Shown here in pieces: positions 39,834 through 49,912 of a stretch of DNA of 64,000 nt. Made by a program: the position numbers and the translations under genes. Below the pieces are notes generated by a model, which ran no database searches, had not been told where the DNA came from, and worked only from the letters and a program-made list of their open reading frames with translations. The stretch spans positions 1,472,001 through 1,536,000 of the forward strand of contig CAVXRD010000002.1 of assembly GCA_963764165.1 (NCBI GenBank). The letters run 5' to 3'. Position 1 is the stretch's first letter, and each line of letters begins with the position of its first letter. Source of the stretch: an uncultured Verrucomicrobiae bacterium (GTDB lineage Bacteria; Verrucomicrobiota; Verrucomicrobiia; Limisphaerales; Palsa-1400).

Positions 39834-40608
39834 GATTTGTAAATATTAGAAACAGTCGAACGCCCCTTTTATGCCGGAACGCAGCCTGTGGCGAGTTCAA
39901 ACTAATACCAATGGTCCTCCGTTCACCGTCCAAAATCATTTTTGGCTCGGCGTCATTTTCTCCGCGTTTTTCAAAAAACAGGTTGGATTTGGTGACATTC
40001 ACTTGGATTTGGTTACATTAGGTGACATTCCCTCCAGCAAGACCATCTCCGAAAAATGGCGATGCGGCGCGGCATCGGCGGCGATCACTCTGGGGCAAGC
40101 CGGATCAGGAATCGTCGAGAATGATCGCAGTGAAACAGTTGCGACCACTCAGGCAGGGGCGATCAACGGCAGGATAAACCACAATCCCATAATGCCGCCC
40201 GCGCCGCGCGGCCAGCCGTCTTCGGTCTCACTCGCCTGTCTTCCCGTCTCCGTCCTATTATATATAGTCATGGAAGCACTTTGGCACATGGATTTGGAAA
40301 CAGAAAACCTACCAGAGGTTTTTAGGCACGATTTTTTGGGGGAAAAATGCTGAAAATTGAATCTGGTACCGCAGAAAGGAAATCCCGCCAGACAAAAGAG
40401 CCACAGATGGGCACAGATCAACGCAGATAAATCAAAAATCTGAACCCAATGACGAAAGTCTGTTCATTTTTGACAAAGAATTCAGGCCGCCCGCACGATA
40501 AGTTTTTGGACATCCGCCTGGCGGGCCACCGACTAGGCGGTCAGGATTCGCCGGCCTTGGGTGGTGACTTGACAGCGGCAGGTTGATCAGTATGAATCTG
40601 TGGCCATT

Positions 40609-41088
40609 TTAAGCCGCATCGCCCATGGCTTCGTCTGTGCTGAAGAAATCCGGGTAGCCGTGCTGGGTGGCGTAATCCTGCATGATGCGGGCGCGCCGGT
40701 TCGCTTCCATCTGCATGTCGGTTTGGCGCGCGAGGCGCGACATGACGGAATCCACGAGTTCATCGGTGGTGAATGGCTTGACGAGATAATCGTCGGCGCC
40801 GTTGGCCATCCCGCGGCGGAACCCGTCGCGGCTGACGAGGCCTGTCATAAGAATAAATGGAATGGGCGCCGTGTCGGAGGATTCGCGAACCGCAATCAGC
40901 GTCTCATAGCCGTCCATGCCTGGCATGTTGATGTCACAGACGACGAGGTCGAGATTCTGCGCGCGAAGGAGTTGCATTCCGACCCTGCCGCTGTCGGCCT
41001 CGATGACGTTGAACCCATAATTGGTCAAGACGGCCTTGATTAAATTGCGCACGTCCTCTTTATCATCGATGACAAGTATGTTCTTCAT
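40609..41088 (-). CDS. Response regulator (receiver with short C-terminal tail)
   Basis: ILVIDD, CDINMPGMDG, GADDYLVKPF. Confidence 0.9.
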   Translation of the reverse strand: MKNILVIDDKEDVRNLIKAVLTNYGFNVIEADSGRVGMQLLRAQNLDLVVCDINMPGMDGYETLIAVRESSDTAPIPFILMTGLVSRDGFRRGMANGADDYLVKPFTTDELVDSVMSRLARQTDMQMEANRRARIMQDYATQHGYPDFFSTDEAMGDAA

Positions 41089-41227
41089 TTTCGAGTTATC
41101 GGCAGAACATGAAGTGTGCCAAAGCGATTTTGTCAAAAAAGTGGAGGAATTTGTCTTGTTTCCGTCCGAATTTGCCCATTTGGCCCCGGGAATGACGGAA
41201 AATTCTGCCGAAAGCCCGATACTGCGC

Positions 41228-43282
41228 CTAGCGGGCGGTTAGCGCCTCAAAGACAGTTTCCGCCAGCCGGCGCGCATGGAAGGGCTTCTGAATGAGATTG
41301 AACTTTGTGCCTTCGGGGAATTCCTTGGCCAGGCGGGCGGCATCGTAGCCGCTGGTGCAGAGCACCTTGAGACCCGGCTTTTCCTGCTGCAAAATTTTCG
41401 CAAGCTCGGTGCCGGCCATGCCTTCGGGCAGGATTAGGTCCGTCAATAACAAATCAATTTTATTATGCTGGTCCTTCCAAATGGCCAGCGCCTCCTTGGC
41501 GGTGCCGCAGCCAAGCACCTTGTAGCCGTGGCTCTCCAGCACGTAATGAATCAGCTTCAAAAGCGGCCCCTCGTCCTCCACCACCAGAATCGTTTCCGTC
41601 CCGCCGATGACCTTTTGCTCGGACGGGGGCAATTGCAGCGCGCCGCCGCGCGCGTTGGAAGCGGGCAAATATATAAAGAAGGCCGTCCCCTGCCCTACCG
41701 CGCTTTCCACCGTGATCCAGCCCTTGTGCTGTTTGACAATGCCATAGACAGTCGCCAGCCCAAGACCGGTGCCGCGATCCTTTTCCTTCGTCGTAAAAAA
41801 CGGCTCGAATATCCGGCTCAAATGCTCAGGGGCAATCCCGCTGCCAGTGTCACCGAACGTCAAACACACGAATCTTCCGGGCGACGCCTCCGGATTGTGC
41901 TTGGCCTCCTCCGGGCCGACGTCGACGGCTGCAGTCCGTATGCGAAGCCGGCCGCCCCGCGGCATGGCGTCCCGCGAATTGACGGCGAGATTCAAGAGCA
42001 CCTGCTCGATCATGCCAAGGTCGGCCAGAATTGCGGGCAGGCCGGGCGCAAATTCCACCTGCAAGGAAACATCCTCGCCCAAAATGCGACGGAGCATCTT
42101 GGTGATATGATTGACAACCTCGTTGAGGTCGACGACCTGGGCGTTGAACTCGTGCTTGCGGCTGAAGGTCATCAATTGCCGTGTGAGGGCGCCGGCGCGC
42201 TTGCCGGCCTCAATGATTTCCTTGAGGGAGTCGGAGCCTTTGGCGGTGAGCTTTTCGTTGACCACCAGGAGGCTGGCGTGGCCGTTGACAACCGTGAGCA
42301 GGTTGTTGAAATCATGCGCGATGCCGCCGGCCAACTGGCCGATCGACTCCATCTTCTGGGATTGGCGCAGTTGCGCCTCCAGGCTCAAGCGCTCCGTGGC
42401 ATCCACCGCCAGTGACAAATAAATTCTCTGGGGAACGATATGGTGGGAGATGATTTCCATCTCGGACCATTTGCCGCAGCGCGTGCGGTGCCGCCACACC
42501 GAGGAATTCTTTCCCTCCGCCCCCCCGGCGGACAACTTGGCAATAAACGCGGCCAGTTCCTCCGGGGCGGCCAGGTCGCGCATGGTCAGGGCCAGGAATT
42601 CCTGCTTGCTGTAGCCGTAGTGCCGGACCGCGGCATCGTTGACGCTGACGAAAGCCAGGGTGGCGTCGTCATAGGTCAGAATGGGTGTCGGGTTGCTGTC
42701 AAACAAAAGCCGGTAAAGATTCTCCGACATCTGCACCCGCGCGAGGGACTGCTCCAGGGCGGCGGTGCGGGAATGAATCAGCGCCTCGAGATTGGTGAAG
42801 TAGGATTGGGCCTCGCCCGTGACGCGCCATTTTTCAGAGAGCGCGACCGCCATCTGTTTCATTTCGACGTGGCCGAATGGCTTCTCCAGCAGCATCAACC
42901 GGTCGTTGCGCCGCAACTGCCGGGAAAGGTCCCGCAGCATCAGCTCGGAGTGCTCCGCGCAAAGCACGACTTCCAGGTTTGGGTCCGCTTCCCAAAGTCG
43001 GCTGATGATTTGCGCGCCGCCTGGCGCCGAAGTCTTTCCGACGTCGACAAAAACAACAGCATACGGGCGTCCGGAGTCCCTCGCCTCAATAGCCTTCCGC
43101 AAGCCATGCTCTTCGGCAATCGCAATGTCCACCTCAAACGCGCTGGCCGCGCGGGGCGGGGAGGCCGCCTCCGGTTCGCCCGCCTCCGGCACGCTGGGAG
43201 CGGAGAGGATTCTGCAAAAGTCATCCCGACTGGGCTGGTCCCCGCCAATGACCAATATGCGATGCAAGCGATTTTTCTCCAT
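41228..43282 (-). CDS. Hybrid histidine kinase (degenerate REC-PAS-HisKA-HATPase-REC)
   Basis: [39 protein letters not shown]-terminal REC. Confidence 0.93.
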   Translation of the reverse strand: MEKNRLHRILVIGGDQPSRDDFCRILSAPSVPEAGEPEAASPPRAASAFEVDIAIAEEHGLRKAIEARDSGRPYAVVFVDVGKTSAPGGAQIISRLWEADPNLEVVLCAEHSELMLRDLSRQLRRNDRLMLLEKPFGHVEMKQMAVALSEKWRVTGEAQSYFTNLEALIHSRTAALEQSLARVQMSENLYRLLFDSNPTPILTYDDATLAFVSVNDAAVRHYGYSKQEFLALTMRDLAAPEELAAFIAKLSAGGAEGKNSSVWRHRTRCGKWSEMEIISHHIVPQRIYLSLAVDATERLSLEAQLRQSQKMESIGQLAGGIAHDFNNLLTVVNGHASLLVVNEKLTAKGSDSLKEIIEAGKRAGALTRQLMTFSRKHEFNAQVVDLNEVVNHITKMLRRILGEDVSLQVEFAPGLPAILADLGMIEQVLLNLAVNSRDAMPRGGRLRIRTAAVDVGPEEAKHNPEASPGRFVCLTFGDTGSGIAPEHLSRIFEPFFTTKEKDRGTGLGLATVYGIVKQHKGWITVESAVGQGTAFFIYLPASNARGGALQLPPSEQKVIGGTETILVVEDEGPLLKLIHYVLESHGYKVLGCGTAKEALAIWKDQHNKIDLLLTDLILPEGMAGTELAKILQQEKPGLKVLCTSGYDAARLAKEFPEGTKFNLIQKPFHARRLAETVFEALTAR

Positions 43283-43434
43283 GAACGGTGCGCGTGAGTG
43301 TAGCGGCTCCCCGGGTGGTTGTCACAAAAAAGTTCGCTCACTTTTGGGCCATTTCGCGCCTGTCATTATCGCTGGCCGCGGGGCGCGGGGCGCCCCCCAA
43401 AAAGGGGGACGTCCAAAAAATATACACTCGCCGC

Positions 43435-43461
43435 TAAAGTATTCCACCGCGCAGCCGATAG
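43435..43461 (+). promoter_or_regulatory. Sigma28 (FliA) promoter of flagellin 1
   Basis: TAAA-N15-GCCGATAG. Confidence 0.88.
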
Positions 43462-43465
43462 CTGG

Positions 43466-43609
43466 GTTGTCAAGAGACAATGGCTGCTGGAAGCCAGCAA
43501 GACCAGCAGGGCGATCGGTGGATGCCCAAATTTAAAATCCACTGCGCGACATGGATGTCGTGACAAGCAAAGGCTCCGCAAGGGGCAACTCACGGAAAGA
43601 GTTAAGTTT
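43466..43609 (+). ncRNA. Structured 5' leader of flagellin 1 (candidate cis-regulatory RNA)
   Basis: Six stems colinear with the flagellin 2 leader, with compensatory changes; GGA-loop hairpins. Confidence 0.7.
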
Positions 43610-44413
43610 ATGTTTATCAATACCAACATGGCGGCCATCACGTCCGCCGGCAACCTCAACACCGCCAGCAACGAATTAAACAACGCGCTGGCGCAATTAT
43701 CATCCGGCTCCAAAATTGTTAATCCGTCTGATAACCCGGCGGGGCTGGCGGAATCGATCAGCCTGAACGCGCAGATCGGTCAAACCCAGGCCGCCAACAG
43801 CAACGTCAGCAATACCATCTCCTACCTCCAGACCCAGGACGGCTATCTTCAGCAAGTTGGCTCGGCCCTTGACCAGATGAGCCAGCTCGCGGTCGAATCC
43901 CAGGACGCGACCAAGACCGACGCCGAGCGCGCCGACTACAACCAGGAATTCAGCACTTTGTCCAGCTACATAACGGATACAGCGGGCAAGGACTTCAATG
44001 GCGTCAGTCTGTTCAGCGGCGCTACCATGACCGTCACCACCGACGGCAATGGCGACACTTTCGCCATGTCGGGCATCGATTTGAACGCTGCGGCCTACAC
44101 GGGCGCCACCGGATCAGACATCTCGACCTCCACCGGCGCGGCGGCGGCCTTGGTAGCCGTCACCGCGGCGATCACCCAGTTGGCGACCGACCGCGCCACC
44201 GTGGGCGCAAACGAAGAGCGCCTCACCTACACCGGCGACGAACTGGGTGTCCTCCAGGACAACCTGACGGCCGCGAACAGCCAGTTGACCGATGTCGACG
44301 TGGCCTCGGAAAGCACCAAATATGCGGAATACCAAATTCTCGTGCAATCCGGGACCTCGATGCTAGCGCAAGCCAATCAGAATCCCCAAGGCGTTTTGAA
44401 GCTCCTGCAATAG
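43610..44413 (+). CDS. fliC: Flagellin 1 (minimal, 267 aa)
   Basis: INTN, LSSGSKI, DNPAGLA, DVDVA.E, QILVQSGTSMLAQANQ. Confidence 0.96.
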   Translation: MFINTNMAAITSAGNLNTASNELNNALAQLSSGSKIVNPSDNPAGLAESISLNAQIGQTQAANSNVSNTISYLQTQDGYLQQVGSALDQMSQLAVESQDATKTDAERADYNQEFSTLSSYITDTAGKDFNGVSLFSGATMTVTTDGNGDTFAMSGIDLNAAAYTGATGSDISTSTGAAAALVAVTAAITQLATDRATVGANEERLTYTGDELGVLQDNLTAANSQLTDVDVASESTKYAEYQILVQSGTSMLAQANQNPQGVLKLLQ

Positions 44414-44437
44414 CAGCGAGTGATTGAGTGAGACGCC

Positions 44438-44467
44438 AGCCGGGCGGCCCTGAAAAGCCGCCCGGCT
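44438..44467 (+). terminator. GC-rich hairpin after flagellin 1
   Basis: AGCCGGGCGGC-N8-GCCGCCCGGCT followed by TCGTCTTGT. Confidence 0.6.
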
Positions 44468-44481
44468 TCGTCTTGTACCAC

Positions 44482-44508
44482 TAAAGTTTTCCTGCCCGAT
44501 TCCGATAA
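44482..44508 (+). promoter_or_regulatory. Sigma28 (FliA) promoter of flagellin 2
   Basis: TAAA-N15-TCCGATAA (TAAAGTTT extended -35). Confidence 0.88.
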
Positions 44509-44512
44509 CTCC

Positions 44513-44652
44513 GTTGTCTAGGCAATGGCGATTGGCAGCCATAAAGGGCCAATCGGGAATGCGGTGGACGCCCGAGTCAAATTCCACCAGGCGACAGGGA
44601 TGTCGCCAGAAACAAAAACCCCGCAAGGGGTAACTCAAGGAAAGAGTTAGTT
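44513..44652 (+). ncRNA. Structured 5' leader of flagellin 2 (candidate cis-regulatory RNA)
   Basis: Same stem order as 43466-43609 with compensatory changes. Confidence 0.7.
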
Positions 44653-45456
44653 ATGGTAATCAATACAAACATGGCGGCCATCACGTCCGCCAACAACCTC
44701 AATAATTCAACGAACATGTTGAATAATTCACTGGCGGAGTTGTCCTCCGGCTCGAAAATTGTGAATCCTTCTGATGATCCGGCTGGTTTGGCCGAGTCCA
44801 TCAGCTTGAATGCGCAAATCGGCCAGACGCAAGCCGCCAATGACAACGTTAGCAACGCCGTTTCCTTCCTGCAGACGCAGGATGGTTACTTGTCGCAAGT
44901 CGGATCCGCCCTGGATCAGATGAGCCAGCTGGCAGTCGAATCGCAGGACGTCACCAAGACCGACTCCGAGCGAGCCGATTATCAGAAAGAGTTCAGCACT
45001 CTGGCTGGTTACATCACCGACACAGCGACCAAGGACTTCAACGGCGTCAGCCTGTTCAGTGGCAGCACCCTGGCGGTCACCACCGACGGCAGCGGCGATA
45101 CGTTCAACATGACGGGGATCGACCTTGGGGCCAGCCAATACACCGGCGCAACGGGCGCCGATATATCCACGAGCACTGGAGCCACTTCAGCGTTGACGGC
45201 CGTCACCACGGCCATCACGCAACTGGCGACAGATCGCGCCACCGTTGGCGCGAACGAGGAACGGTTGACCTATACAGGTGATGAACTCGGTGTGCTGCAG
45301 GACAACCTGACCGCCGCCAACAGCCAATTGACGGATGTTGACGTGGCGACCGAAAGCACGAAATACGCCCAGTACCAAATCCTCGTGCAGTCCGGCACGT
45401 CGATGCTGGCACAGGCGAATCAAAACCCTCAGTCCGTGCTCAAGCTCCTGCAATAA
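44653..45456 (+). CDS. fliC: Flagellin 2 (minimal, 267 aa)
   Basis: Close paralog of 43610..44413 with the same conserved termini. Confidence 0.96.
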   Translation: MVINTNMAAITSANNLNNSTNMLNNSLAELSSGSKIVNPSDDPAGLAESISLNAQIGQTQAANDNVSNAVSFLQTQDGYLSQVGSALDQMSQLAVESQDVTKTDSERADYQKEFSTLAGYITDTATKDFNGVSLFSGSTLAVTTDGSGDTFNMTGIDLGASQYTGATGADISTSTGATSALTAVTTAITQLATDRATVGANEERLTYTGDELGVLQDNLTAANSQLTDVDVATESTKYAQYQILVQSGTSMLAQANQNPQSVLKLLQ

Positions 45457-45486
45457 GGATATTGAGCCTTGATGAAGGCTAACAAC

Positions 45487-45512
45487 CTCGGGCGGCCTCC
45501 GGGCCGCCCGAG
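45487..45512 (+). terminator. Hairpin between flagellin 2 and fliD (no U tract; partial terminator or mRNA stabiliser)
   Basis: CTCGGGCGGCC-TCCG-GGCCGCCCGAG. Confidence 0.5.
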
Positions 45513-45569
45513 TCGACCAATAAACGGAGCAGCACAAAACGGAATAAAATGAAAGGTTCCAGGTAATTT

Positions 45570-47399
45570 ATGGCAGCAGCAGCGGGTTCCAGCAGTCTCG
45601 CCTTGTCCGGATTGGCTTCGGGCATCAATTGGACCAACATCATCAATGAGATGGCGCAAGCGGCCTCCGCGCCCATCACGCAGATGCAAACGGAGCAGAC
45701 GAACGAAAACAACCAAAATTCCGCCTATCAGAACATCGGCGCGGATCTCGCCAATTTGCAAACCGACGCCCAAACACTTTCATCCGCCAGCTTTTTCGAG
45801 TCCACCACCGCCGCCAGTTCCGATTCAACCGTCGCCACCGCCACGACCGGCACCGGAACTCCCCCGGGAACCTACAATTTTTCGGTGAGCCAATTGGCAA
45901 CCGCGGGCGTTCAAACCGGCTCCGCCATTTCCGCGCAAGCCATCAGCGCCTCCAGTAATGTCTCGTCGGTTGATCTGAGCAGCAGCGCGTTTTCCGATCC
46001 AATCAGGGCGGGCACTTTTACTATCAACGGACAGACCATTACCGTCGCCGATTCGGACACGCTGCAATCGGTCTTTACTCAAATCAATACCGCCACCGGC
46101 GGGGCGGTTACGGCTTCGTATAATCCCACAACTGACGAAATTAGCTTGTCGAGCAGTTCGCCCATCACCCTCGGAAGTTCCGCCGACACCAGTAATTTCC
46201 TGCAATCGACGCAGCTTTACAGCAACGGAACCGGCGCCGTGACCAGCCTTGGCGCCCTGGGCGGCATCAACCTGAACAATGCCGCCGCCACTTCCAATTT
46301 GTCCACCACCATTACCAATGGAACCGGCAGCGAGGGTTCATTTGAAATCAACGGCGTCACCATCACCTTTAACGCGCAAACCGACAGCATCAATAATATC
46401 CTATCGGACATCAACAACTCCGAGGCGGGGGTCACAGCCACTTATAACGGGGCCACCAACCAGTTTGCCCTGACGAATAACAGCACGGGCAACTTGGGAA
46501 TCACGATGCAGGATTTGAACGGAAGCAATTTTCTGGCGGCGACCGGGCTTTCCAGCGGAACATACAAGGAAGGGTCAAACCTGCAATACACCATCAACGG
46601 CAGCGGCACCCTCACGAGCGAGGATAACACGATTGACGCGACATCGCTGGGATTGCCGGGATTGTCAATCACCGCGGCGGCGAAAGGGAGCACGAACATC
46701 ACCGTAAGCCCGGACGTAAATTCCATCGCAACGGCCATCACTAATTTTGTCAACGATTACAATACCATCCAGAACTACATCACGTCTCAGACAACCGTTT
46801 CAACCAGCACCAGCAGTTCCACTGGCGCGGTGGACTCCACCACCACCACGACCGGCACACCGGGACTGTTGATGGGTAACATGGATGTTGAGGGCATTGC
46901 CACCAACCTCCGCCAATTAATCGATGCGTCCCCCATATCCGGCGTCGTCCAAAACCTCAACGATCTTGGCATAGCGTCTTCTGGGGAAAACAATCTTCTG
47001 ACCACGAGCTCCCTTGTGCTCAACAATTCGGTGGCCAATAATTTGAGCCAGATTACCCAGCTTTTCACCGATCCAAGTTCGGGTCTCGCGACGACCATAA
47101 ACAATTACCTCAGCACCACTCTCGGCAGCAACGGCGTCATCTCCACCAAAGAGGCAAACCTCACCAAGGAATCAACCGCCCTAACGAGCAGCATCACGAC
47201 GCTGCAAGCCCAAATCACCGGGCAGGAAACGCAAATGCAAAATGAATTCGTCCAGATGGAGGATGCGATCAGCACCATCAATGTGGAAAAGGAGTATCTT
47301 ACCGCCTACTTCAACAGCGCCGCCACGACGACCGACGCGCCGACGGCCGCGGGTTCAAGCACGTCCAGCAGCACCAGTTCGACGAGCTCATCCGGTTAA
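45570..47399 (+). CDS. fliD: Flagellar filament cap protein
   Basis: SGLASGINW, VSQLA, ITNFVNDYN, LNDLGI, C-terminal coiled coil; follows flagellins. Confidence 0.92.
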   Translation: MAAAAGSSSLALSGLASGINWTNIINEMAQAASAPITQMQTEQTNENNQNSAYQNIGADLANLQTDAQTLSSASFFESTTAASSDSTVATATTGTGTPPGTYNFSVSQLATAGVQTGSAISAQAISASSNVSSVDLSSSAFSDPIRAGTFTINGQTITVADSDTLQSVFTQINTATGGAVTASYNPTTDEISLSSSSPITLGSSADTSNFLQSTQLYSNGTGAVTSLGALGGINLNNAAATSNLSTTITNGTGSEGSFEINGVTITFNAQTDSINNILSDINNSEAGVTATYNGATNQFALTNNSTGNLGITMQDLNGSNFLAATGLSSGTYKEGSNLQYTINGSGTLTSEDNTIDATSLGLPGLSITAAAKGSTNITVSPDVNSIATAITNFVNDYNTIQNYITSQTTVSTSTSSSTGAVDSTTTTTGTPGLLMGNMDVEGIATNLRQLIDASPISGVVQNLNDLGIASSGENNLLTTSSLVLNNSVANNLSQITQLFTDPSSGLATTINNYLSTTLGSNGVISTKEANLTKESTALTSSITTLQAQITGQETQMQNEFVQMEDAISTINVEKEYLTAYFNSAATTTDAPTAAGSSTSSSTSSTSSSG

Positions 47400-47612
47400 T
47401 ATTAGCGGGGACACACAAACGAGATAGCCACCCAGATCGTCGATGCTGCTTGCCGCGTCTGGTCTCGATCGAGTCAAGGACGGCAGCACACGAGGTTGTC
47501 TGTTTTCATTTCCATGTGCCAGAATGCTCCACGATCAGAATATATATTTGATTGTGATTGTGACGAGCGGACTGATCTCGTTGCCTTCCGCCGTCTTGTT
47601 TGGCCAATTTAA

Positions 47613-47641
47613 TTGGAGCAAGTGGCGAAACAGGCTATAGT
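47613..47641 (+). promoter_or_regulatory. Sigma70-type promoter, likely leaderless transcript
   Basis: TTGGAG-N17-TATAGT, 6 nt before ATG 47648. Confidence 0.5.
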
Positions 47642-47647
47642 TGCACA

Positions 47648-49912
47648 ATGCGTCGGGAAACAGATTTCGTCCTCGAACAAGCCGCCTGGCCAGCGCTGGT
47701 GCTGGAAGGGAACGGCCGCATTTGCCGTGCCAACCAGGCCGCCCGCCGCATTTTCGATTTGCCGGTTTCGCTGCCCGCGATCTCCGTCGCGGCTCTCTGG
47801 GATGACGAAAGCGACACCACTCCGGAACAATTTTTGCACGACGGCATCGCCGGCGGCACAGCCCCGTTGAAATTGCGCATCGCCGGGGGCGCGAAGGCGG
47901 ATTTCGTGGCGCACGGAACCAATGTCGCGCGCGACGGGCATTCCTACGTCGTGCTGCAATTGTTCAAGGAATCCGGCGCGGCTTTTCCCGAATTTATCTC
48001 TGGTGCGCCCGCAAACGCATTAGCCCCGCGCGCATCGCATTCACCCGAGCCTGCCAAGCCAGCCGGCGGCGTGTGGACGGCGGTGTGGCCGGTGCTGCTG
48101 GTGGATTCGCGCTCGGTCATCTGCCGCGCGAACCCCGCCGCCGAGCGATTTTTCGGAGCCAAAAGCGGCGCTCTCTTTGCGGCGCTCTGCGCTCCCGAAG
48201 ACACGGCAAAGTGGTCGACGGTTCTGACGCAAAACCACGGTGAGCTGAAATTGCGGCTGGAAATGGGCGCAACGGCGACGTTTCATTTGCAATGCTGCCC
48301 CGCTGAAGAGCACGGAAAAACATTGGTGCAGTTTTTCGCCGCCGGAATGAATGCTCAAGCCGCCGCGCCAGGAGTCGGAGGCGAGGAGGAATTTCTGCTG
48401 CAAGACGCGGAATGGCCCGCGCTGGTGGTGAAGAAAAATGGCGCGGTCACGCGCAGCAACCGCGCCGCGGTGCGGGCGTTTGGCCCGCTGCTGGAAAAAG
48501 GCGAGCAATCCGCCGCCGCGATTTGGTCCGCGCAGAACAAAGGGACGGCAGCCCATTTCCTTTCAATGCCCGCGCCCGATGCGCCTGTTCGATTGACATT
48601 CAATTTGAAGAGCGGCCTGCCGGGCGTGTTCATGGTGCAGATGTGCGATCTTGGCGGCGATAATCTTTGCCTCCTTCAGCTGCTCAAGGATATCGCGCAT
48701 GATCCGGCGCCTCCCTCCAAACCGGCCGCTGCCGCACCCGTGGCTGCTCCCGCCGCGGGCGCCCCCGCGCAACCGGCTGCCGCCACGGCAGCCGAAAGCC
48801 TGGCGCACAAGCAAAAGCTCGACTGCGCGTTGCAGCTTGCGCGTTCGGTTGCGCTGGACTTTAACAATGCGCTCACCAGCATTCTTGGCCATGCTTCACT
48901 GCTGTTGAGCAAGGCCGAGGCGAATCATCCGTGGCGCAATTCTCTCAGCGAAATTGAGAAATCCGCCTCCAAAGCGGCAGAAGTGGCGAACGACCTGGCC
49001 GCCTTCAGCCGCCAGGAAAAAGAAACGCGCGTTCATCTTGGGGGGAATATGAACACGCTGCTTGAGCGCACGGTCGAGGCCTTTCAAGCGGGATTGCAAA
49101 AGCCCATCAAAATTTCAACCTCGATTGAGCGCAAGCTCTTTGCCGCAAATTTCGACGAGGCGAAAATGCAGCAGGCCATGATCAAGCTTCTCGACAATGC
49201 GGTCGAAGCCATCCCGGCAGGCGGAAAGATCAGTGTCAAGACGAGCAATCTGGAACTCGCGGAGCCAGCACCCGGTTCCGCCTCGAAGCTGCCCGCTGGA
49301 AATTACGTCTGCGTGGAGGTCGCTGATACGGGCGACGGCATCCCGGCGGAGGTGATGCCCAGGATATTCGAGCCGTTTTTCACCACCAAGGGCTCGCGCC
49401 ATCGCGGCCTGGGGCTGGCGTGGGTTTACGGAATTGTGACCAACCATGGCGGCGCGGTGACTGTCAACAGCGAAACCGGCAAAGGCGCCTCCGTCAAAAT
49501 ATTTTTGCCCGCCACCAAGAAGATTGTCCGCTCGACGCCCGCCGCGGCGACGGATTTGAGCGGCGATCAAACCATCCTGTTCGTCGACGACGAGGATTTG
49601 TTGTTGACTATGGGGCAGATGATTTTGTCCTCCTACGGCTACACTGTGCTCACCGCCAACAGCGGCCAAAAAGCCCTGGAAATTCTCGGCGGGTCAAAAA
49701 AGAAAATCGACCTTGTGATAACGGACCTTGTCATGCCCAACATGAGCGGGCGCGAATTGAGCGAGCAAATCCTGGCGCTCGCGCCGGCCACCCGCATTGT
49801 GTGGTCCAGCGGCTATGTGCGCTCGACAGGCGAGGAGCAGGAGCGCTATTTGCAAAAGCCCTTCACGAGCCAGGACCTTCTCCGCAAAGTCAAAGAGGCG
49901 CTGGCTGATTGA
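47648..49912 (+). CDS. Hybrid histidine-kinase-like protein with three PAS-like repeats and no H-box histidine
   Basis: Three WP(A/V)L(V/L)...R.N.AA repeats; [31 protein letters not shown]; intact REC. Confidence 0.88.
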   Translation: MRRETDFVLEQAAWPALVLEGNGRICRANQAARRIFDLPVSLPAISVAALWDDESDTTPEQFLHDGIAGGTAPLKLRIAGGAKADFVAHGTNVARDGHSYVVLQLFKESGAAFPEFISGAPANALAPRASHSPEPAKPAGGVWTAVWPVLLVDSRSVICRANPAAERFFGAKSGALFAALCAPEDTAKWSTVLTQNHGELKLRLEMGATATFHLQCCPAEEHGKTLVQFFAAGMNAQAAAPGVGGEEEFLLQDAEWPALVVKKNGAVTRSNRAAVRAFGPLLEKGEQSAAAIWSAQNKGTAAHFLSMPAPDAPVRLTFNLKSGLPGVFMVQMCDLGGDNLCLLQLLKDIAHDPAPPSKPAAAAPVAAPAAGAPAQPAAATAAESLAHKQKLDCALQLARSVALDFNNALTSILGHASLLLSKAEANHPWRNSLSEIEKSASKAAEVANDLAAFSRQEKETRVHLGGNMNTLLERTVEAFQAGLQKPIKISTSIERKLFAANFDEAKMQQAMIKLLDNAVEAIPAGGKISVKTSNLELAEPAPGSASKLPAGNYVCVEVADTGDGIPAEVMPRIFEPFFTTKGSRHRGLGLAWVYGIVTNHGGAVTVNSETGKGASVKIFLPATKKIVRSTPAAATDLSGDQTILFVDDEDLLLTMGQMILSSYGYTVLTANSGQKALEILGGSKKKIDLVITDLVMPNMSGRELSEQILALAPATRIVWSSGYVRSTGEEQERYLQKPFTSQDLLRKVKEALAD

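Follow-up and report, generated by a model that had tools for sequence, protein, structure and literature searches.

Covarying tandem pseudoknots precede the CsrA-type hairpins of Limisphaerales flagellin leaders: a candidate obstacle to RNase E scanning

Introduction

What does a structured leader do for the flagellin mRNA that carries it? The question is raised by two neighbouring flagellin genes in the 64,000-nucleotide stretch of DNA analysed here (hereafter the window), whose leaders were noticed when the letters of the stretch were read without database searches. That sequence-only reading proposed an undescribed tandem RNA element, acting as a ligand, pH or protein sensor or as a nuclease block, in control of flagellin expression. 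As we describe below, the central part of the proposal holds. Namely, the two mRNAs carry an undescribed, covarying tandem-pseudoknot cis-element, for which there is no match in Rfam, significant covariation and a predicted transcription start upstream. Its assignment to a function has come out differently.

Results

The leader sequences quoted in the sequence-only reading are all present in the window (43466-43543 and 44513-44588), and the element stands upstream of both flagellin genes; it is larger than those coordinates, reaching from the upstream promoter to the ATG. Each flagellin gene is preceded by a promoter of sigma-28-like type and a leader that starts with a 5' hairpin, continues with pseudoknots 1 and 2 and then has a hairpin with an A-N-GGA loop. 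The 3' half of the leader brings a linker rich in A, a tetraloop hairpin rich in GC and another hairpin with a GGA loop, which is placed at the likely Shine-Dalgarno (SD) sequence and is followed by the ATG. The promoters (43435-43461, TAAAG-N14-GCCGATAG, and 44482-44508, TAAAG-N14-TCCGATAA; all features of the locus are on the forward strand) end 5-6 nt before the leader start in both copies. They are assigned to the sigma-28 (FliA) type by the consensus of such promoters, and from the usual spacing the starts are predicted near 43467 and 44514, in other words upstream of the pseudoknots and not downstream of them. Both the promoters and the CsrA/FliW module described below had been missed in the earlier account of the leaders.

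In the first leader, the 5'-terminal hairpin H0 (43467-43480; its pairs 7-14, 6-15 and 8-13 covary in an alignment in which they were modelled) is followed by pseudoknot 1 (43481-43507; stem S1 TGGC/GCCA, 1-nt loop L1, stem S2 GCTGG/CCAGC) and pseudoknot 2 (43509-43543; S1 GGGC/GCCC, S2 GGTGGAT/ATCCACT, A-rich loop L3). Then come CsrA-type hairpin 1, which has an ATGGAT loop and abuts pseudoknot 2 (43546-43561), the GC-rich spacer hairpin H2 with its tetraloop (43573-43586), CsrA-type hairpin 2, which contains the likely SD sequence (43587-43603), and flagellin gene 1 (43610-44413, 267 aa), itself followed by a strong terminator-like or stabiliser hairpin (44432-44474, fold -33.4 kcal/mol). 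The second leader repeats the arrangement with H0 at 44514-44525, pseudoknot 1 at 44526-44553 (S1 TGGC/GCCA, L1 G, S2 ATTGGC/GCCAAT), pseudoknot 2 at 44554-44588 (S1 CGGG/CCCG, S2 GGTGGA/TCCACC), CsrA-type hairpin 1 with an AGGGAT loop at 44590-44607, H2 at 44619-44630, the CsrA-type/SD hairpin at 44632-44648 and flagellin gene 2 at 44653-45456 (267 aa). The 5' hairpin had been claimed for both leaders and is found in both; as read from the sequence, that of copy 2 can have no more than 4 bp, with a 4-nt loop. Further downstream lies a fliD-like filament cap gene (45570-47399), whose best NCBIfam matches are FliD, below the cut-off. Between flagellin 2 and this gene there is a perfect GC-rich hairpin without a U-run (45488-45515), possibly a 3' stabiliser for differential expression.

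Close relatives of the window's flagellin are found in Verrucomicrobiota, Limisphaerales or subdivision 3. RNA contigs of relatives, taken from four metatranscriptome runs, begin to cover the second leader at 44523, none of them reaching further upstream. These contigs stem from relatives only (shares 0.05-0.13), the start site and the expression level not being readable from them, and they hint, weakly, at pseudoknots that are transcribed and lie close to the 5' end.

How exceptional is such a fold in the genome? Our pseudoknot finder describes each leader as two abutting H-type pseudoknots with a score of -40.2, which none of 200 dinucleotide shuffles of either leader reached. A score of -40 is, however, attained by 55 of the 5401 regions upstream of long ORFs in the genome, i.e. 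it is not rare alone, and for this reason the real evidence for the element is covariation. When the double pseudoknot has to abut a GGA hairpin, seven upstream regions in the genome qualify, with the flagellin leaders ranking first and second, and a regular expression for the tandem pseudoknots matches only these two leaders in the 7.0-Mb genome. A covariance model run over the whole genome likewise returned both leaders only (E 1e-35 and 1e-29), the next match having E 0.97. RNAalifold, which cannot model pseudoknots, found no more than the CsrA hairpin and stem S1 of pseudoknot 1.

The leaders used for covariation were gathered via the flagellin protein and not via the motif. Alignment A1 was made with MAFFT, without use of structure, from 77 of the 82 leaders having promoter and hairpin (the length-divergent L045, L048, L143, L151 and L153 are omitted). 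Here, changes on both sides are seen in 2/4, 6/6, 3/4 and 6/7 pairs of the four pseudoknot stems, and 89% of the cells pair, versus 34-43% if the partners are slid by 1-3 columns. In a home-made G-test with APC and a tree-based null, all four stems have pairs among the top 7 of 10,585 in A1. Alignment A2 was fitted to a model of the S1 stems and the hairpins only, with 130 of 134 rows kept; among its 10,440 pairs, 18 have E<1, and 17 of these are proposed pairs, the exception being a pair of adjacent columns. In particular, the S2 pairs, which are unmodelled in A2, reach E 0 and 0.03 in pseudoknot 1 and E 0 and 0 in pseudoknot 2. Since unmodelled S2 pairs of both units covary, pseudoknot 2 is supported as well as pseudoknot 1. 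All four pseudoknot stems covary. The second pseudoknot had been thought less well supported, a view which no longer stands, as 6 of its 7 S2 pairs change on both sides and two of its unmodelled pairs exceed every null value.

Two details of the sequence-only reading need correction. Of the three adjacent compensatory pairs seen between the two copies, the outermost is the 1-nt loop L1, which by H-type geometry should not be able to pair together with stem 1; and the motif TGG-NN-GCC..CCA, of which the window does contain four occurrences, is not kept in homologues. In single sequences the GGA loop could also pair with the C-rich stem that follows, to give a third pseudoknot; this was rejected because none of its pairs had E<1.

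With crossing stems, compensatory changes in both and feasible loop lengths, the predicted fold of each unit is of the H type. The median lengths of S1/L1/S2/L2/L3 are 4/1/6/1/6 in pseudoknot 1 and 4/5/7/1/8 in pseudoknot 2, and gaps of 0-1 nt separate the pseudoknots from each other and pseudoknot 2 from the CsrA hairpin. The loops are A-rich and free in sequence: among 125 leaders, L3 takes 87 different sequences in one pseudoknot and 119 in the other; the commonest letter of L1 is G (73/125), and no unpaired base is invariant. Close to the helix junctions there are GGC/GCC pairs whose conservation within the order is 90% or more.

The downstream half of the leader has, by homology, the makings of a CsrA-FliW flagellin leader. 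In each copy, two A-N-GGA motifs are placed in hairpin loops, one of them at the SD sequence. The A-N-GGA of hairpin 1 is invariant in all 77 rows of A1, the second G-G-A is at least 90% conserved, and the stems of the two GGA hairpins are paired in 96.5% and 93.7% of cells. What is more, csrA and fliW are adjacent on contig C5 of the genome, and CsrA was found in 43 of 43 flagellated relatives. The GGA hairpins match the CsrA SELEX consensus, as given in excerpts of PMC7652899, and their layout resembles that of C. jejuni flaA (PMC4894983). The B. subtilis hag and C. jejuni flaA systems share with ours a sigma-28-type promoter, two GGA loops of which one is at the SD sequence, and the adjacency of csrA and fliW; unlike in hag and flaA, a 5' hairpin and two covarying pseudoknots here precede the CsrA sites, and the GGA sites are 38 nt apart with a spacer hairpin between them, as compared with 21 nt in flaA. 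Directly behind csrA (L031, on C5) there is an ORF of about 105 codons with a flagellin-like start and end, at a position where relatives have a full flagellin gene; it is possibly a shrunken flagellin.

How far does the element extend beyond this genome? The order yielded 178 distinct flagellin genes, of which 6 lie near a contig end, 31 are without a CsrA-type hairpin and 141 have one. A double pseudoknot anchored to the CsrA-type hairpin occurs in 125 of these 141 leaders (p<=0.05, 60 shuffles), related genomes being non-independent samples in this and all other counts of leaders and genomes. In other orders of the class, a single pseudoknot is found in 29/53 leaders at p<=0.05 and in 42/53 at any score; at class level, covariation of the single pseudoknot failed to reach significance, its two best pairs among 2,775 having E 0.95 and 1.2. 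A pseudoknot was seen in 1 of 15 leaders from other classes of the phylum, in none of 4 from other phyla picked up incidentally and, with a looser gap, in 4/25 and 2/23 leaders of two outgroup samples from phyla with CsrA and FliW. Two leaders from another class of the phylum, L115 and L189, seem by eye to combine an SD-like site with a pseudoknot upstream of the CsrA hairpin; the finder missed this long-loop pseudoknot because its loop 3 exceeds 14 nt.

The element is restricted to flagellin genes that have their own leader. Of the 141 genomes of the order, 69 are matched by the covariance model, and flagellin is present in 68 of these; flagellin genes directly behind csrA never carry the element (0/23). 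In a metagenome scan with the pattern of pseudoknot 1, 86 of 132 matches fall directly before a flagellin start; the remainder comprises 5 matches at contig ends, 3 of them recognisable as leaders, and 41 elsewhere; in 40 of the latter the rest of the leader is missing by eye. The same kind of scan over viral contigs gave 6 matches, none with pseudoknot 2 or a CsrA hairpin after it. As many as 18 leaders with pseudoknots, 3 of them in the order and 15 in other orders, stand behind another flagellin gene without a sigma-28-like promoter, one of the 18 with what by eye appears to be a variant promoter; such promoterless leaders are probably inside a longer transcript.

As read by eye, a third or further pseudoknot unit is present in G387 and G390. 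In G387 (L258:409-682) there are two copies of pseudoknot 1, and thus three pseudoknots ahead of flagellin. In G390 (L249, reverse strand, about 600-1320; also L250 and L251), the leader is about 700 nt long. Its 5' part consists of a sigma-28-like promoter and a double-pseudoknot/CsrA cassette ending in a 4-codon ORF, and its 3' part of an extra pseudoknot with a GGA-less hairpin, a second double-pseudoknot/CsrA leader and flagellin; such a long leader might be a sponge for CsrA or else a processing unit. Leader cassettes without an intact flagellin are seen in G406 (L252:300-1077), G390 (L248) and G461 (L247:1358-1494), where they precede 3-codon ORFs, an 88-aa ORF of unknown kind or a decayed flagellin-like start. 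Finally, a lone element resembling pseudoknot 1 precedes a 424-aa gene in G054 (L260, reverse strand; model E 0.002), a genome in which we found no flagellin. It is either a remnant or a chance match.

In the phylum of genome G576 (Trichloromonas), the place before the CsrA hairpin is taken by something else. Namely, 23 of 27 flagellin leaders have an extra SD-like site there, which beats all 20 shuffles in 18/27 and is followed by an ATG in 0/23. The strong site (L442-L471, L049, L050, L052) lies mostly 17-43 nt past the sigma-28 -10 box in leaders where a promoter was found. Elsewhere, an SD-like site occurs in 8/157 leaders of the order (neither window copy among them), 2/53 of other orders, 9/18 of other classes of the phylum and 7/25 of the phylum of G577. 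The pseudoknot scores are reversed, at 3/27 in the phylum of G576 versus 130/157 in the order and 45/53 in other orders. The presence of RNase J, found in 13 of 25 genomes, does not separate leaders with the SD-like site from those without.

Is the element already known under another name? A search of window positions 40000-48000 against Rfam 15, which the earlier reading had called for, gave 6 weak matches, none on the leaders, and 12 homologous loci gave 4 matches of E 0.4-0.9, none of which came anywhere near the gathering score. None of the families tested takes in the pseudoknot module, c-di-GMP-I/II, preQ1, SAM-II, guanidine-III and flg-Rhizobiales included. It is absent from the main texts of three motif-discovery papers, whose motifs were covered as far as they are curated into Rfam 15. 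A literature search, extending to a 15-kb supplement of PMC8632094, brought up no description of it. By the features tested, then, what appears to be new is the pseudoknot module, and the putative CsrA-FliW flagellin leader is of a known kind.

Discussion

What could the pseudoknots be for? Their structure is kept, their loops are free and the number of units is variable, all of which suits an additive physical element. In our judgement there is about an even chance that, by analogy with obstacles studied in E. coli, they form a constitutive obstacle to RNase E scanning and stabilise the CsrA-silenced mRNA. CsrA would bind the two GGA loops and block the ribosome, and FliW would release CsrA upon flagellin export, both being proposed by homology with Bacillus and Campylobacter. 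The 5' end could become a monophosphate via removal of pyrophosphate or an upstream cut. Approximately 10 and 11 stacked bp (about 21 in all) would then present RNase E with one rigid coaxial block, by analogy hard to pass, and the mRNA would survive while CsrA keeps flagellin untranslated; a larger number of pseudoknot units should, by the same analogy, give more protection. In promoterless internal leaders, it is protection after a cut that would matter.

The enzyme in question is available: RNase E/G was found in 44 of 44 genomes, and the RT motif in 30 of 31 loci. The window's genome keeps the pair equivalent to R169/T170, which in RNase E are the residues that sense the 5' monophosphate. 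The genome also encodes RNase Y. For RppH, 5 of 8 Nudix domains were compared, as partial sequences, and none reached the RppH cut-off. According to excerpts of PMC9943677 and PMC11194081, pseudoknots in E. coli 5' UTRs hinder the scanning of RNase E to a degree proportional to the number of coaxial bp, with lengths of 8, 11 and 15 bp tested, and plain or orthogonal stem-loops hardly hinder it. The obstacles of Richards and Belasco (VPK, BWYV and hTR inserts) are, like the predicted ones here, H-type pseudoknots in a 5' UTR; here, too, each pseudoknot has 10-11 coaxial bp and faces an RNase E/G with the RT pair. They differ in being foreign inserts in E. coli reporters, whereas the predicted pseudoknots here are natural, tandem and apparently ligand-free. 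That said, several observations count against such an obstacle, among them the failure to find a clear RppH, the presence of RNase Y and the best pairs of E about 1 for the single pseudoknot of other orders. Leaders in other classes of the phylum are mostly without the pseudoknot (1/15) though RNase E/G is present, and the conserved GGC/GCC pairs at the junctions could mark a protein-binding surface.

The slot that lies after the start site and ahead of the first CsrA site may have a wider meaning. An SD sequence without a start codon is a known stabiliser, STAB-SD, as described in part of PMC5449094. The STAB-SD-like sites of the phylum of G576 occupy the same slot of the flagellin leader and would have the same proposed stabilising role; they differ in that STAB-SD acts by ribosome binding, and the window leaders are without such a site. 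We suggest tentatively, at somewhat short of an even chance, that CsrA-FliW flagellin mRNAs have an exchangeable stabiliser slot in this position, filled in Verrucomicrobiia by one to several stacked pseudoknots and in another phylum by a STAB-SD. The pseudoknots would in that case be a natural, ligand-free RNase E shield of tunable length, keeping a pool of silenced mRNA that titrates CsrA.

Such a swap is as compatible with ribosome recruitment as with stability, since STAB-SD binds the 30S subunit, and the SD-like site in the same slot elsewhere would do the same. Could the pseudoknots, then, be a ribosome-standby or S1-loading element of the tisB type, which holds S1 and 30S bound and permits fast translation after CsrA is released? 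The tisB mRNA is similar in having a 5' pseudoknot upstream of a structured ribosome-binding site, and this pseudoknot is required for S1/30S binding and standby translation, as parts of PMC7708055 report. In our leaders the SD sequence is in a hairpin loop behind an A-rich single strand, and rpsA, which encodes S1, passes the cut-off in the genome. However, the SD hairpin has only 4-5 bp, and standby may therefore not be needed. The extra pseudoknot-hairpin unit of G390, which has no GGA, is followed only after more than 100 nt by the last leader unit, and by eye no start codon of its own comes after it; extra units would presumably add little to one S1 site. The tisB mRNA itself differs in being a toxin mRNA with a single pseudoknot and a strongly sequestered ribosome-binding site, activated by processing. 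We consider a standby role unlikely.

Alternatively, the pseudoknots could offer a binding surface to a flagellar protein such as FliW, FliS, flagellin or an export factor, thereby coupling translation to secretion or strengthening the CsrA switch. The confinement of the element to flagellin genes and the conserved G-C pairs of the junctions are what one would expect of such a surface, and B. subtilis FliW is reported, for reasons unknown, to bind the hag leader (excerpts of PMC6529632). Against this, stems, loops and unit number vary widely across the class, the phyla with FliW and CsrA are mostly without the pseudoknot (4/25 and 2/23 in the samples above), and FlbT was not found in the genome. 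We regard such a protein partner as improbable.

The idea of a ligand or pH sensor does not survive as well. As a tandem riboswitch or pH/ion sensor, for instance for c-di-GMP, the leader would have its pseudoknots stabilised by the ligand, with a change in mRNA stability or translation. Small H-type pseudoknots are common aptamer folds, and a riboswitch aptamer that blocks RNase E scanning is reportedly on record, which means that such a switch needs no classic expression platform. Yet no Rfam family matches, the free L3 sequences and the lack of an invariant unpaired base leave no ligand pocket to point to, the two units differ in geometry and their number varies. Nor is there a covarying alternative helix or, as read from the sequence, a terminator in the leader, and none of the 10,440 pairs in A2 joins a pseudoknot to the ribosome-binding region at E<1. 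All of this makes a sensor of this kind highly unlikely. As to the nuclease block of the sequence-only reading, its 5'-3' version, in which the tandem pseudoknotted blocks at the 5' end resemble viral xrRNAs, is scarcely credible, since RNase J passes the cut-off in 0/44 genomes (best score 48 of 400 bits) and there would be no 5'-3' exonuclease to stop, the predicted fold also being without a three-way junction; an obstacle to RNase E scanning fits the same idea better.

If the pseudoknots are such an obstacle to RNase E, what would follow? At the most practical level, the element is a missing Rfam family, and the leader could be put to use as a small part that stabilises mRNAs. So far, RNase E scanning obstacles have been studied mainly as foreign inserts in reporters (PMC9943677 and PMC11194081, in the portions drawn on). 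The flagellin leader is a natural, class-wide candidate for such an obstacle, with more than 120 sequence variants, compensatory pairs that evolved and natural forms of one, two and three units. For B. subtilis, it has been deduced that the majority of hag transcripts have CsrA bound to them (excerpts of PMC6529632), and where this is so, a stabiliser independent of translation would be useful. The CsrA-FliW switch leaves a large share of flagellin mRNA untranslated, and how this mRNA escapes decay is the question that the tandem pseudoknots may help to answer.
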